A model generated the notes under the pieces. The model made no database searches. It was not told the DNA's origin and saw only the letters and a program-made list of their open reading frames with translations. 53,787 nt of DNA from a virus (lineage: Duplodnaviria; Caudoviricetes): the IMG/VR virus record IMGVR_UViG_3300008267_000208, positions 1 to 53,787 of that record; one strand, given 5' to 3'. The translations under genes were made by a program, and so were the position numbers. Below, in pieces: positions 1,332 through 24,050 of the stretch (position 1 is the first letter of the stretch; every line of letters starts with the position of its first letter).

Positions 1332-1549
1332 TTATAAAGTTCTTTTAATAGGTCATCATACTTTTTTGATGAATGAGTTATAGATGAAAAAAACTCTCTC
1401 ATAGTACCTGCTAACTTCAGTTGCTTTTCGTATTGCTCCTGTTGAGCAGCTTTATAACCTAACTCAATAGCATCAATCATAGATGTATTATTTAAAGGTT
1501 TCCCTTCAAAATTCTCTTTATATATTTTTTCTAAAGTATCTTTATTCAT
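1328..1549 (-). CDS. Hypothetical protein
   Basis: ORF track entry; ATG at 1549 preferred over the upstream TTG. Confidence 0.6.
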   Translation of the reverse strand: MNKDTLEKIYKENFEGKPLNNTSMIDAIELGYKAAQQEQYEKQLKLAGTMREFFSSITHSSKKYDDLLKELYK

Positions 1550-1685
1550 TGACTTCAAGTTTTGGTCGGTATGAGTTTACTAATTCCATTATCTCTCTAG
1601 TTAATGATCCTGCGGTTTTAGTTCCATCAAGATTCCATCGGATGATGAGATATTCAATTTCTGAGTATAGTATTTCGCTATTCAT
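1542..1685 (-). CDS. Small hypothetical protein (47 aa)
   Basis: Manual ORF MNSEILYSEIEYLIIRWNLDGTKTAG... fills the gap between neighbours. Confidence 0.55.
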   Translation of the reverse strand: MNSEILYSEIEYLIIRWNLDGTKTAGSLTREIMELVNSYRPKLEVNE

Positions 1686-18802: not shown

Positions 18803-20083
18803 TTATATTATTGACATAGTTCCGTAATTAGAACCTTTTGTCATTTTGGTTTTTAAATTATATTTTTTAAATACTTGATTAATTTGTTCTAATATGTTGT
18901 CTTCTTCATTGTAATCAATTAAAATTGCGTCATAAGTGTATAATACAATCTTTGTTGATTTGCTCTTCAATATCTTAACAATATCCCACAATATAAGAAC
19001 ATTTGTTGATGTCTCCAAGTTTTGGAGTGTATAGTTGAATAGTTTTTGAGGATTTAAATCTTTTATTTCCTTAGTTAATTTATGGTCCGAAATAGGACAT
19101 TCTATAAATCCATCTGTTTGAAACGTTTCCCATAATTTATCTACATGCTTTTGAATTAACTGAAAATAAGGTATATGTTGGTATTCCTTATATATCCCCC
19201 CATACAATTGTCTAAACATTAATATTTTTGCTTCATCTATTTCTATACCTGCTTCTCTAGCAAAATATTGATATGGTGTTTCATTTTCAAAACTATATCC
19301 TACTAATTGAGCAGCTAGTGTTGGATGGTAAGCACTAATATCTATTTCAATAAAGTAATCATTTTCAGGAATAAATGCTTCTCTACAACCATCTTCTTTC
19401 TTTAAAGCTGCAAAATTAATACCATTGAAGCTATTGGAAGGCCTTCCGGTTGTAGTATGTAAGTTATATTGGGTGTATATTGCATCATCATGTATAGAAA
19501 ACGCGTCGTTATTTGGTTCAAAGAATTTATTAAATACATCTGGATTGGTTTTGATTCCGTTTCTTTCAATTGAAAAAAACACACTGGTTAATTTATTGTA
19601 AAACTTTACATTATGGGGCGTAACACAATGTTGTTTTATTTTGTCAAAAATAAGTTCACATTTTTCATAATGTTTAACAGCAGGTATAATGGTATTTATT
19701 ATCCCTTTATCTCCATGTCTTTGATAGAAAAAATCATGTGCCGACGTATTTGGTTCAATATATTCAGGTATACCAAATGAAATATCTACGGTGTTTCTAA
19801 GTGGAAAAAAATATATAAATGATTTTCTATTGCGTACATAAATTTCCTCGTAAGAAGCAAGTAAATTGTTTATAGGCGTTTTATTCAATGATAATGTCTC
19901 GGAATGATCAAGACATACCATATATCCTTTATCGTTATTTAACGGTTTAATATATAGTAAAGATACACGATTTAATGATGGATGTATATTGTCATTAAAG
20001 TATATAGGCTCTATAAATACTTTGTCATAACCTTTATAAAATAATTCTGCTAACTGTTCGTTAGTTTCCACTACATAAAACAT
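18803..20083 (-). CDS. Short, divergent family A DNA polymerase
   Basis: TTTGRPSN, motif A EIDISAYHP, motif B AK.LMFRQLYGG, motif C LYTYDAIL. Confidence 0.8.
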   Translation of the reverse strand: MFYVVETNEQLAELFYKGYDKVFIEPIYFNDNIHPSLNRVSLLYIKPLNNDKGYMVCLDHSETLSLNKTPINNLLASYEEIYVRNRKSFIYFFPLRNTVDISFGIPEYIEPNTSAHDFFYQRHGDKGIINTIIPAVKHYEKCELIFDKIKQHCVTPHNVKFYNKLTSVFFSIERNGIKTNPDVFNKFFEPNNDAFSIHDDAIYTQYNLHTTTGRPSNSFNGINFAALKKEDGCREAFIPENDYFIEIDISAYHPTLAAQLVGYSFENETPYQYFAREAGIEIDEAKILMFRQLYGGIYKEYQHIPYFQLIQKHVDKLWETFQTDGFIECPISDHKLTKEIKDLNPQKLFNYTLQNLETSTNVLILWDIVKILKSKSTKIVLYTYDAILIDYNEEDNILEQINQVFKKYNLKTKMTKGSNYGTMSII

Positions 20084-20101
20084 AACCTATTTATTTGCCC
20101 T

Positions 20102-20132
20102 AAATATAAAAATTATTTTTATGGAATCCTAG
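20102..20132 (-). promoter_or_regulatory. Class A promoter CTAGG-N19-TATATTT
   Basis: Motif match upstream of the polymerase gene. Confidence 0.7.
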
Positions 20133-20142
20133 TTCTTTAGTT

Positions 20143-20217
20143 AAAAAAAGAAAACACCCTAGGTAGCGACTCCGTTGGGTGTTTTCATAGCCGAAGCTAT
20201 AGACGGTCCTAAGCCGT
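20143..20217 (-). ncRNA. Three-hairpin small RNA ending in an intrinsic terminator, with segments antisense to 23S rRNA H69-H70
   Basis: Hairpins ACGG-CUUAGGA-CCGU, AUAGC-UUCG-GCUAU and GAAAACACCC...GUCGCUAC...GGGUGUUUUC followed by U7. Confidence 0.7.
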
Positions 20218-20223
20218 ATATCT

Positions 20224-20640
20224 TTATATTTTACTCAATTGGAAATGCATTCCATCTTTTCTAGTCCAAGTACCACCCCAATCAAAACCAGCATCTGTAA
20301 AACATTTTACAAATCCTGCTGACAGTACTGGTGTTTTATTAAGACCATTCCATGCTGCATTCACATCAATTGCTATGCCCCAAGAATGTAGTGACATGCT
20401 AGATAAACCTCTCTTCTTTCTAATATTAAAACATCCGTCCCATGTTTTTAATTCTTTTACGAATCCTGTTGTGATGAGATTTTTAAATGCTAGTGAAAGT
20501 GGAGCAACTAAGTCTTTATTGCAATATAATCTTTTAGGTATAACACCTATTTCTAATTCAGTTGGTACATCCCATAGAACCATATTAGATTCTTTTGTTG
20601 GATCGCCATATTTTTTTAATGCTTGTTGTGAAGTTACCAT
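20224..20640 (-). CDS. M15-family Zn peptidase, probable endolysin
   Basis: R...SLHSWGIAIDVN...WGG.W...DGMHFQ. Confidence 0.9.
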   Translation of the reverse strand: MVTSQQALKKYGDPTKESNMVLWDVPTELEIGVIPKRLYCNKDLVAPLSLAFKNLITTGFVKELKTWDGCFNIRKKRGLSSMSLHSWGIAIDVNAAWNGLNKTPVLSAGFVKCFTDAGFDWGGTWTRKDGMHFQLSKI

Positions 20641-21248
20641 TATTTATAATATTTTGTGAAATCGTTTCTTAAATACTCTGAGAGCATTGGTAATTTTTGT
20701 TGTTTACTTGTTAACTCAGTTATATTTTTGTTTGTTATAAATACTTGAGATTTATCTCCTGTTAACTGCCAAGGTAAATTAAATGGTTGGTATAGTTGAT
20801 ATAGAATACTTGAATCTTTATTTACTAATTTATCGTGTGTATCTTTATTGATTTCAAGATAAATAATTTCATTGGTTTTTTTACAAAAATATCTTCTGTA
20901 TTCTCCTATTTGGTAATCGGTTTGGGTTGGAATATTAGGAGAGAAAGTTGGTATTGATATAATTTGGTCTACATCGATTTTTTGTATATCAATATATTCC
21001 GCTGTTCGAATATCTTCTTGATTTATATTTAATATTATATCTGAATTCTGGGAAATTGAAGTTGAAGAATATTCAAATACAGGAATAAGTTTTTCTGAGG
21101 GAAGATCTTGAGGGGTTCTACCCGTAAATAATTCTTTTTTAGATGTTTTCCAATAGTATCCTATGTAATTTTCTTTTGTAGATGAGTAAACATATTCACC
21201 TCCATTAGTGTATAAATTTGCTTGTATTTGAGATAAAGGATAATACAT
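20640..21248 (-). CDS. Hypothetical protein (baseplate region)
   Basis: 202-aa ORF in the late operon. Confidence 0.7.
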   Translation of the reverse strand: MYYPLSQIQANLYTNGGEYVYSSTKENYIGYYWKTSKKELFTGRTPQDLPSEKLIPVFEYSSTSISQNSDIILNINQEDIRTAEYIDIQKIDVDQIISIPTFSPNIPTQTDYQIGEYRRYFCKKTNEIIYLEINKDTHDKLVNKDSSILYQLYQPFNLPWQLTGDKSQVFITNKNITELTSKQQKLPMLSEYLRNDFTKYYK

Positions 21249-21250
21249 TT

Positions 21251-24050
21251 TTAAATTCTATTTGAAACGTGAACGTGATCATCATGATTTGCAAATCCAA
21301 AAGTTAATAATGCTTTTGGATTTCCTTTTTCGACATTTTTCTTATATCCTAATCTTTGAAGAGCAGCAACAAATTCATCTATTTTTGCTCGATTAGAAGC
21401 TCTTGGGTTAACAGCTATTCCATCTATTATTGCTATATCTACTGCATCTCCAGCAGTATGGCGACTTGGAGGAGTTGATTTATGTCCGCTTATTGCGGTT
21501 GTAATACTTACTACAACTCCCGCATCTACTGCTGCTTTACTTATATCTCTTAATAAACTATCTTTTATAGGATCTTTTGAAGGTGTAGATCCTCTTACTA
21601 CTCCATCTTTAAAATTTACATTAGGATATTTAGCATTAACTGTTCTTACACCATTAGAAGGAGATGGTGGATTAGTAGTAGTAGATGAAGGTTTTGATTG
21701 ACCTTGAGGATTAATATTTTTTGATACTGTTTCAGTGTATTCTCCTTTAGATATACAATATGAATCTAAAGTAGTAACCCATTTATTATTTTCTATTTTA
21801 TGTTCTAGATTTTTTATTAAAAACTCAACTGTTTCAGGATAATTAGATGGCAGGATAATTAGATGGCAAATAAGCAGCATCAATTAAAAACTTACTATTA
21901 ATTTTCATACCTGAAAGTCCATCCATAGTTAAAGATAAATTGAATGGAATGAATCCAGTTCCTGGTTGGAGATTGGGTTTTAGTGTTTTAGGATCTGCAC
22001 CTTTTTTTACTAATTCATAATTTACATATGCATCGTGATAAAGTTGCTCATATTTAATTAAAGTAGTTATAGAATCTTTATAAGTATCGATTTCATCATC
22101 TGAATAAGTAAATTTTTCAAGGGATACTAAATATTTTACAAATGGCACATATACTCCTTCAAATTGATTTTTCATTTGAGCATATATGTCTTCATATTTT
22201 GTTACTAAATCTACCTTTTTAGTAGATCCATCATTTGTGTTTGAAATTAAATCTTTATATCTATCTTTTAATCCATTATTTAATCGGGATAAAGCAGTAG
22301 CGTTTTCTCCAACTGCTGAGCTATTAGCAGCAGCTGCTACTGTTATCATAGTAGACATAGCAGGAGAAAGTTCAGTTTTGAATCTAAAATCTCTTATAAA
22401 ACCTGACTGGTTATTATCTGGATTATATCCATATAGATAAAATTTAGCGTATTTATTATCTATATCATACGTATTTGATTGAATGCTTCCTGATCGAGCA
22501 AAGTGTTCTATTAATTTTTCACTATTAGGAAAAGGATTTTTATCAATGATTTTTATAGTATTGGTTATTTCATCAACAAATACTTCTAACTGATTCATTC
22601 CTCCTAATGCTCCATTAATTCCACTTACAATGCTTTTTAAAAAATCTATTAGAGCTACACTATTGGTTTCAACATCTACTAATTGATCAAGTTTATCTAA
22701 AATAAATCTAAAATTAACATATATGTTCATTATTTGACCATATTCTGATTTGCTAGAAGTGGAAATTTCAGAAAAAATAAATGGTTCTCCATCGGGTAAA
22801 AAATTATAAGTAAAGTTATTATCTATTAATACTTTACTAACAACGCACACTCTAGGATCTACACTTATTTGTAAAGGATTTAAATACATTAAATTAGATT
22901 CAGTATCGTAGTCAAATTTCATTAACGGAAGAGTTTTGTCTCCTGTTGTTACCTGATACATTACATATTTTTCTATGAATTCTAGAAAATTTCCTAGTCT
23001 GCAGTAATATTGGTGGAAGTTTGATGCTTTAATTGCATCTTTTCTTATTCCATCTACCGTTCCCGTTGTATTAATAGTAGGATTACTAAAATCAAAATTC
23101 CTTACAGTATCCGAACCATAAGGAATAAGGCTGCTCATAGTTTTAAGATATTGACCTATGTTGCTTCTAAAGGAGGCAACTTCAATTAATTCTGTTGTAG
23201 TAAGAGGAGCTCCACTTGATGATATAGCTGATGGGGTACCATTAACCATATTTGGGGAGAGAATATTGGTTTTAAAAGACTCAATTACGTCTCCAATACT
23301 TACTAAATCTAAAGTAATATCATAACTTCCATCTACATTAAAAGACCAATGAATATTGGAAACTTTAGCAAACATGGCATCATAATTTCCTTGAGAAGTT
23401 TTACGTTTTTGATTTATTTTTTTAAGAAATTCACCATATGAATTGCCTCCTTTTAAAAAATCACTTGCTAAACTATTATCTAAATCAGATCCTTTTTGTA
23501 ATACTCCATCATTAGTATAGTACATAGAATGTCCCCATTCTAATAAAACACTAAATCCTAATCTTAAATATAAAACATCTATAATATCAAATTGACTTTT
23601 ATTGAAAGCTTTAATTTGTACTGTTGCTCTTCTTAATGAACCTCTATTTTCATGTTTTATATGAGCAGATTTTATACCCATCATTGGGCGTAAACCAAAC
23701 TCTGTTCCCCCAATGCCGTATGCTGTAGATCCTAATATGCTGTTTCTTTCTGAAATTCCACTAAATAGTGTATTTCCACTATCTGATGTTCCATTAAACA
23801 GAACAAATCTTTCAGCTAATATATTATCTGATATTCCATCAATCTCTCTTAATGATATATTATTAATAATATCTTGCTTAATAATGTCTGTTGAAGATAC
23901 TAATTTTACCCATGAAGTATTAGCATTTAAATATACTATTTCTTCTGGGGTTCTTGTGCCTCCATCAACATATCCTGAACCATATATTTTTTGTCGTTGG
24001 TCAACCTGTTCATTTATTTCTTTGGGGAAACCTTCACCTAATAAATTCAT
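21251..24050 (-). CDS. Baseplate hub-like protein with a C-terminal M15-like peptidase domain, interrupted by a 16-bp tandem duplication
   Basis: ORFs 21843..24050 and 21251..21883 join in frame (YLPSNYP|ETVEF) when one repeat copy is removed. The C-terminus has SRH..GDAVDI...HDDHVH. Confidence 0.7.
21835..21866. repeat. Perfect 16-bp tandem duplication
   Basis: caggataattagatgg x2. Confidence 0.95.

Follow-up and report, generated by a model that had tools for sequence, protein, structure and literature searches.

The window, that is the whole stretch of DNA analysed here, is a 53,787-base IMG/VR virus record with a completeness estimate of 33%. On its minus strand a short sequence with three hairpins lies between an endolysin gene and a gene of no known family. 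The letters of positions 20143 to 20217, which follow the endolysin stop, are exactly those given in the original prediction, and the minimum free energy fold reproduces all three hairpins drawn there (−24.2 kcal/mol, z = −2.07; equalled by 8 of 200 shuffles). The features of the locus are listed with their window coordinates; 23S rRNA positions are those of E. coli.

18803–20083, minus strand: downstream gene, an ORF of 426 aa without known family, starting about 60 nt past the element
20143–20222, minus strand: whole RNA element, composed of three hairpins between a short A-rich 5′ flank and a U7 tail
20143–20149, minus strand: U7 tail, judged by its sequence the likely transcript end at this locus
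20150–20186, minus strand: hairpin 3, with a 10-bp stem (20186–20177 with 20159–20150) and a 17-nt loop (20176–20160)
20161–20169, minus strand: segment 2, UCGCUACCU, in the loop of hairpin 3, exact complement of 23S rRNA 1928–1936
20187–20201, minus strand: hairpin 2, (U)AUAGC-UUCG-GCUAU, of which AUAGC-UUCG-GCUAU proper occupies 20200–20187
20203–20213, minus strand: segment 1, CUUAGGACCGU, exact complement of 23S rRNA 1919–1929
20203–20217, minus strand: hairpin 1, with ACGG (20217–20214), the loop CUUAGGA (20213–20207) and CCGU (20206–20203)
20224–20640, minus strand: upstream gene, an endolysin of 138 aa (family match to Peptidase_M15_4), with the stop codon TAA at 20226–20224

Hairpins 1 and 2 are separated by a C and a U. 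The endolysin stop codon lies 6 nt ahead of the ACGG strand of hairpin 1. Since this leaves no space for a separate promoter, the RNA probably derives from the 3′ end of the endolysin transcript. Pfam, PHROGs and PDB sequence searches of the neighbouring ORFs returned the endolysin as the only match and nothing for the 426-aa ORF. ARAGORN found no tRNA gene in the window, nor does the window contain an LSU rRNA match. Between the RNA and the 426-aa gene we note a conserved block (20084–20142, minus strand; also in L082–L090), which has a TTAGTATATTTAA-like sequence and then AAAGGTTATG at the start codon. The block resembles a Bacteroidota-type promoter; a sigma-70 scan of it gave nothing. On the plus strand a terminator scan called the complement of hairpin 1 together with a T-rich run (20203–20217), at a place which no plus-strand gene enters. 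Four RNA runs contained 0.05 of the sampled words in one case and next to none in three, and at 85% likeness none of their contigs covers 20144–20227, which says nothing either way on expression.

The original prediction had connected this RNA with helix 69 (H69) of 23S rRNA. We used the rrlH gene of E. coli K-12 as reference, in which the 24-mer named in the prediction is indeed found at 1914–1937. The features of H69 were read from the Rfam bacterial LSU consensus. There, positions 1919–1924 are the 3′ strand of H69, 1925–1929 form a C-UAA-G turn and 1930–1934 are unpaired; 1919–1936 are written in upper case but for one base. The two complementary stretches in the window, 11 nt facing 1919–1929 and 9 nt facing 1928–1936, are both exact as had been claimed, and past one bulged base (C20202) the sequence UAUAG is in addition complementary to 1914–1918. 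Chance was assessed with 200,000 mononucleotide shuffles of the 75 nt. An antisense match to 23S rRNA of at least 11 nt is seen in 7,393 shuffles (3.7%), one of at least 9 nt in 90,494 (45%), and an 11-mer with a separate abutting 9-mer in 23. Because a window of 54 kb offers about 700 such 75-nt stretches, the match within the window alone is only suggestive, not decisive. We also note that the 9-mer CGCUACCUA (20160–20168, minus strand) is complementary to E. coli 23S rRNA 828–836 as well; its core UCGCUAC has no second site.

Relatives of the element were sampled by synteny and by pattern. Synteny sampling by way of the downstream 426-aa gene makes no demand on the RNA element. Among 14 relatives of this gene with upstream DNA (56–77% identity), 10 carry the element directly upstream (L082–L090, L095). 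It is absent from this place in L091–L094, one of which has the element farther upstream, beside an inserted ORF (L115). On the contig of L093 and L115 the 426-aa homologue appears to be split a few codons past its start by an insertion which carries, by eye, an HNH-like ORF, with the RNA element upstream of the first piece.

Three pattern scans of viral contigs left a different part of the element free in each. The scan for segment 1 and hairpin 2 yielded 50 loci, and in all 50 the undemanded UCGCU is present in the loop of the following hairpin. With hairpin 2 and UCGCU as pattern we obtained at least 119 matches; among those listed, 18 have by eye the three-hairpin layout and the other 101 look like unrelated DNA. 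The undemanded UUAGGAC(C/U) precedes hairpin 2 in 18 of the 18 element-like loci. The scan for hairpin 1 and UCGCU gave at least 120 stretches, with 86 distinct sequences among the matches listed. In total, 115 distinct elements were parsed from viral contigs, again among the matches listed. Part of the invariance described below is by construction, as the patterns prescribed either 9–10 nt in segment 1 or 5 nt in segment 2, and distant members with other loops would be missed by scans which are anchored on the conserved motifs.

A blastn search of the element against cultured and deposited phages gave only chance-level matches and no cultured carrier, bar a variant of the element in the 735-kb uncultured phage LR756501. 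The 2.5-kb neighbourhood returned a single weak match to an endolysin, and an exact 22-mer of the window had no match in viral contigs. When one genome from each of 185,579 prokaryotic species was searched, a single match was obtained, located on a 163-kb contig of a metagenome-assembled genome (MAG) labelled uncultured Bacteroides. Among 401 genomes of the phylum of this MAG the family pattern matched the MAG alone (2 matched in the backwards control). It follows that the element is viral. The whole records, namely the 735-kb phage, the MAG and three phage genomes of 324, 360 and 271 kb which are rated as complete, hold one copy each, which argues against a multi-member guide family. A second match of the covariance model described below in the 324-kb genome (21 bits) falls in coding-looking sequence, and we took it as chance. 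Rfam 15 has nothing overlapping the element within window positions 19000–21500 at E up to 10, in agreement with the original statement that no described family could be recognised. At E up to 1, eight of ten diverse loci have no Rfam match on the element, and in the other two (L303, L296) the matches on or beside it are at chance level (E 0.5–0.95, far below gathering). The element of the window is thus one instance of a phage RNA gene, about 67–75 nt long, which is widespread and undescribed, and the family is abundant in uncultured large phages.

The 115 elements are built alike, and only certain parts of them are fixed as sequence. These are hairpin 1, ACGG-N-UUAGGA-CCGU, and the motif UCGCUAY(Y) in the loop of hairpin 3. 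The spacer ahead of UUAGGA comprises 0, 1, 2 or 3 nt in 8, 82, 24 and 1 of the elements, and the base preceding UUAGGA is not fixed (C in 45, A in 45, U in 17, G in 8). In hairpins 2 and 3 the stems are conserved as structure only. Hairpin 2 has stems of 4–8 bp with 42 distinct 5′ strands and loops which are mostly UACG (36) or UUCG (33); hairpin 3 has stems of 6–14 bp with 84 distinct 5′ strands and loops of 8–28 nt. MAFFT alignments misplace these variable stems, and RNAalifold applied to one such alignment sees hairpin 2 only. We therefore built the covariance model (R1) from five copies of equal geometry. The model recovers 99 of 100 sources at E up to 0.01 and has a single match in the window, at 20151–20219 (71.7 bits, E ~1e-15).

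Covariation was scored on 94 distinct, mutually related rows fitted to the model. Standard pairs make up 96.5% of the paired cells as compared to 71.2% in shuffles, and the covariation score of 0.664 (0.164 in shuffles) is reached by 0 of 500. If the partners are slid by one to three columns, pairing is seen in just 28–52% of the cells. Both sides change in a compensatory manner in 17 of 19 pairs, including all nine modelled pairs of hairpin 3. In hairpin 1 the pairs are AU in 94, CG in 94, GC in 93 and GC in 89 of the 94 rows; L171 (ACAG/CUGU) and the 735-kb phage (L266; ACGA/UCGU) each have one double change. G·U accounts for 71 of 1,761 paired cells, where the other strand would have A·C mismatches. 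The compensatory changes together with the G·U pairs indicate selection on a single-stranded RNA made from one strand. UUAGGACCG(U) and UCGCUAY are thus retained among the relatives, whereas the stems of the second and third hairpins covary, and just this, conserved rRNA-complementary segments with covarying stems, had been named beforehand as the check on the idea of an rRNA-directed RNA.

No gene is a constant neighbour of the element, since upstream and downstream genes both vary among the clades. In 9 of the 10 relatives found by synteny the preceding gene is a homologue of the 202-aa ORF of the window, as read from its last codons. It follows that in the window the endolysin was inserted between that gene and the RNA. 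Among the best 80 of 333 endolysin relatives (75–93% identity) we saw by eye no element within 170 nt past the stop. The endolysin is therefore not the partner of the RNA. It resembles a mobile cassette in that relatives of 75–93% identity precede many unrelated genes, with a swap point TAA|AGA... at the stop codon. Phage-encoded bS21 was considered as a companion gene; it is present in one of five records, which shows no link.

Such a setting could be expected if the element were a mere terminator plus 3′-UTR stabiliser, a cassette spread by recombination at gene boundaries among related phages. The element stands close behind a stop codon, the upstream genes are swapped at its 5′ edge, where the endolysin was inserted in the window, and 87 of the 115 elements have a T-rich tail behind hairpin 3. 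However, 28 elements have no T-rich tail, and most of the copies inside tRNA arrays are among them. Within flanks of 300–400 nt, tRNA genes are found near the element in 6 of 114 loci; each time the element shares the strand of the tRNAs and either fills the gap between two of them or directly follows one (e.g., Glu-element-Val and Phe-element-Lys). The other 108 loci have no adjoining tRNA in the flanks examined. From its position in tRNA arrays on the tRNA strand we conclude that the element is a stable RNA and more than a terminator. A terminator would further not explain why the loop sequences are conserved while the stems drift, and it has no need of two extra hairpins. In addition, a simple terminator scan (G+C-rich stem, loop of 3–8, U run) omits hairpin 3, whose loop of 17 nt in the window exceeds the limit of 8. 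As to the terminator tail originally predicted, the U7 run is there in the window but the hairpin before it is not one that such a scan accepts. Altogether we consider the terminator cassette a very improbable explanation.

The tRNA arrays bring another explanation to mind. The element could be a relic or mimic of tRNA-Leu(UAG), with an anticodon arm, a long variable arm and a T-like arm, and could act as decoy for an enzyme or a defence nuclease which reads the anticodon loop. The size is tRNA-like, six loci lie inside tRNA arrays, and the window's loop CUUAGGA recurs unchanged as the anticodon loop of a phage tRNA-Leu(UAG) at locus L102, with a hairpin following at the place of the variable arm. 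Yet ARAGORN never calls the element in arrays where the flanking tRNAs are called, and the Rfam tRNA model (RF00005) matches the neighbouring tRNAs and not the element. With a spacer of 0–3 nt before UUAGGA the loop is not fixed at 7 nt, there is neither an acceptor stem nor a D arm, and the loop of hairpin 3 varies between 8 and 28 nt. The fixed ACGG/CCGU stem and the UCGCUAY motif would also be left unexplained. We therefore regard a tRNA mimic as improbable.

We return to 23S rRNA, now with the family in hand. The part of segment 1 which the family keeps, UUAGGACCGU, has a unique complement in E. coli 23S rRNA, at 1919 (1919–1928). The complement of UCGCUAC likewise has a single site, at 1930, and the two sites are 1 nt apart. 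For random motifs the joint chance of a 10-mer complement anywhere in 23S rRNA and a 7-mer complement starting at most 3 nt away is ~1.3e-6. Together, hairpin 1 and the hairpin-3 loop motif give a gapless cover of 1919–1936, that is of 18 universally conserved consecutive bases; the second part accounts for 1929/30–1936, and it is the frequent extra pyrimidine in UCGCUAY(Y) which closes the gap. The bases past UCGCU were not demanded by any search pattern. The first of them is A in 103 of 115 elements and would pair with U1931, the second is C or U in 115 of 115 and can pair with G1930, and the third is C or U in 105 of 115 and can pair with G1929. Of the two RNA segments, the 5′ one is complementary to the 5′ part of the 23S rRNA target, an arrangement with permuted halves which we call padlock order. 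What had been noticed in the window, two parts of one RNA facing adjacent 23S rRNA stretches in permuted order, thus holds across the family for 1919–1936.

The proposed extension over 1914–1918 fared differently. It exists in the window with its one bulge, and complementarity to this part, the H69 loop, holds in the clade of the window only. Across the family the 5′ strand of hairpin 2 covaries, and in 76 elements found without a demand on hairpin 2 the antisense matches facing 1918–1912 amount to only 26–67%. Judged from these complementarities, the conserved target is 1919–1936, the H69 3′ strand and the following junction, and not the tip of H69 that forms bridge B2a, over which the original prediction had extended it. 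The base modifications of 23S rRNA at 1911, 1915 and 1917 lie outside this target.

If the partner were encoded by the phages themselves, a sense copy of the 18-mer might be expected in their genomes. A contiguous sense 18-mer with up to 3 mismatches is absent from the window, from the three complete phage genomes and from the 735-kb phage. Of 41 genomes sampled from the phylum of the MAG, 18 have an exact copy and one more has it with one mismatch; the position inside the LSU rRNA gene was confirmed in one sampled genome. The remaining sampled genomes probably lack assembled rRNA genes. 23S rRNA is the only candidate partner found.

The MAG is the only bacterial-labelled record which holds the element. 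It has, at 145283–145300 of contig C1 (L395 ~1380–1640, minus strand), a sense copy of the 18-mer with two mismatches, 17 kb from the element. This copy includes a 12-base palindrome, AGGTAGCTACCT, and sits in a stretch of about 250 nt without ORFs of at least 50 aa and without Rfam match. About 0.15 such two-mismatch matches are expected by chance in the MAG, and none occurs in the four other phage genomes.

The same searches bear on the possibility that the element acts as DNA, either as target or relic of a homing endonuclease for 23S rDNA or as a site for some other DNA-binding protein. The 23S rRNA stretch is also a known homing-endonuclease site, and free-standing HNH-like and GIY-YIG-like ORFs are by eye common near the element loci. 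But the compensatory changes and G·U pairs indicate single-stranded RNA, the halves are permuted and about 40 nt apart, and neither the window nor four whole phage genomes contain a contiguous site at up to 3 mismatches. A DNA-level site thus appears hardly conceivable to us.

Both motifs are unchanged across phages which differ in stems, flanks and neighbouring genes, and copies of the element span phages of differing base composition. The constancy of the motifs fits a target which is invariant between hosts. The conserved pairing stretches, UUAGGA in loop 1 and UCGCUAY in loop 3, are presented in loops, as in a trans-acting base-pairing small RNA. We cofolded six diverse elements with 23S rRNA 1900–1950. 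Segment 1 is predicted to invade H69 with ddG values of −11.5 to −18.5 kcal/mol; shuffles have a mean of about −5 to −6 (sd ~3), with the best of them at −14 to −20. The cofold program cannot draw the loop-3 contact simultaneously.

A structured RNA whose hairpin 1 and hairpin-3 loop are bound by a phage or host protein or by another RNA, with the fit to 23S rRNA a coincidence, is the alternative with which we are most concerned. It accepts the RNA family as real, invariant hairpins with specific loops are typical of protein-binding sites, and segment 1 is partly buried in hairpin 1. On the other hand, coincidence would have to place two independent conserved motifs on adjacent single sites of 23S rRNA, for which the joint chance was given above. 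Among the clades no gene is a constant neighbour, and neither four whole genomes nor the window showed a contiguous phage-encoded target; a split one is conceivable. We think this alternative unlikely, though not negligibly so. The element is fixed as sequence where it faces 23S rRNA and in the partner strand ACGG, and elsewhere it is kept as structure only; an invariant partner is the simplest explanation.

We therefore favour, with about equal weight on its being right or wrong, a trans-acting RNA which pairs with the H69 3′ strand and the following junction (1919–1936) in nascent or free 50S subunits. One could envisage the following steps. The RNA would be released from the 3′ UTR or by tRNA-processing enzymes and would be abundant. 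It would then act in trans through base pairing with host 23S rRNA, starting from the two loops opposite the less structured 23S rRNA positions 1923–1936. Strand exchange could next spread the pairing into CCGU·ACGG; such an exchange is possible because the 5′ strand of hairpin 1, ACGG, has the same letters as 23S rRNA 1919–1922. As a result the formation of H69 might be blocked, or the base of H69 held, on nascent 23S rRNA or on the free 50S subunit. A block of H69 would in turn interfere with 50S maturation or with subunit joining.

The further-reaching proposal, namely that large phages of several clades use a dedicated tRNA-sized RNA which docks at 23S rRNA 1919–1936 and so disables or re-tunes ribosome assembly or subunit joining, we put forward tentatively, as a possibility somewhat short of an even one. 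Two counterpoints deserve mention. Hairpin 1 locks up four bases of segment 1, and 1919–1924 form the 3′ strand of H69, so that full pairing needs both partners opened. Moreover, a ribosome-blocking RNA would harm phage translation too.

Small hairpin RNAs are familiar from plasmids and phages. RNA I, CopA, Sok and lambda OOP are stem–loop antisense RNAs which start pairing at their loops. The phage element likewise is a small hairpin RNA with a terminator-like 3′ hairpin, and its loops carry U-N-R-type turns (UUAG in loop 1, UCG in loop 3) as known antisense loops do. The partner of RNA I, CopA, Sok and OOP is a transcript from the same replicon, usually made from the opposite strand. For the phage element, by contrast, the searched phage genomes offered no contiguous target, and host rRNA is the only partner that fits. 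RNAs which pair with rRNA are known from archaea and eukaryotes as guides or chaperones, namely the C/D and H/ACA sRNAs and the U3 and U8 snoRNAs. These share with the phage element a short two-part complementarity to conserved rRNA. The phage element, by contrast, belongs to bacterial viruses and has the padlock order, not the order of an H/ACA pocket; we know of no natural counterpart of this order among guide RNAs. On reading the 115 elements we saw no conserved C/D or H/ACA boxes. Finally, the T4 species 1 and 2 RNAs and the E. coli 3′ETS-leuZ are small stable RNAs derived from tRNA transcripts. They resemble the element as non-tRNA RNAs between or beside tRNA genes, a likeness in gene setting, and are freed through tRNA processing, as the element would be; they differ from it in that 108 of the 114 element loci are without adjoining tRNAs in the examined flanks.

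It is established that phages alter translation by means of proteins and tRNAs. RNA pairing with the ribosome's own RNA we did not find described for phages in the full-text literature, nor is it present as a family in Rfam 15. Within the full-text literature (subscription journals lie outside its coverage) we found no paper on a phage RNA complementary to this rRNA site. If true, the element would represent the first case, in bacteria or their viruses, of a natural antisense RNA directed in trans against ribosomal RNA. The fixed parts point at a highly conserved and functionally central spot of the 50S subunit, and with so universal a target the RNA sequence would work against almost any bacterium. 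Should the 23S rRNA reading hold, it would reveal a new mode of host take-over, provide a natural template for antisense ribosome inhibitors and explain a non-tRNA gene within phage tRNA arrays. Should it fail, a very well defined orphan RNA family remains which deserves a name.

In PMC7162821 huge phages are described as carrying many translation genes, and the 735-kb phage is predicted there to infect Bacteroidetes. A review (PMC7038079, citing Kulik 2017) states that a PNA aimed at H69 inhibits growth of E. coli, from which it appears that the H69 region is vulnerable. As described in this review, the PNA resembles the phage element in addressing the H69 region via base pairing; it is, however, man-made, contiguous and aimed at the hairpin, whereas the phage RNA would cover 1919–1936 in two pieces.

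Two observations concern sequences close to some of the elements. In one clade without T-rich tail a conserved GAAAGCTTGC is found 8–25 nt past the element (L270, L292, L293, L299, L303 and relatives). This motif may be a further hairpin or a gene start. A tRNA-free spacer of 140 nt lies in the phage tRNA array of L102 (598–737), adjoining an element-bearing array, and could hold another small RNA.
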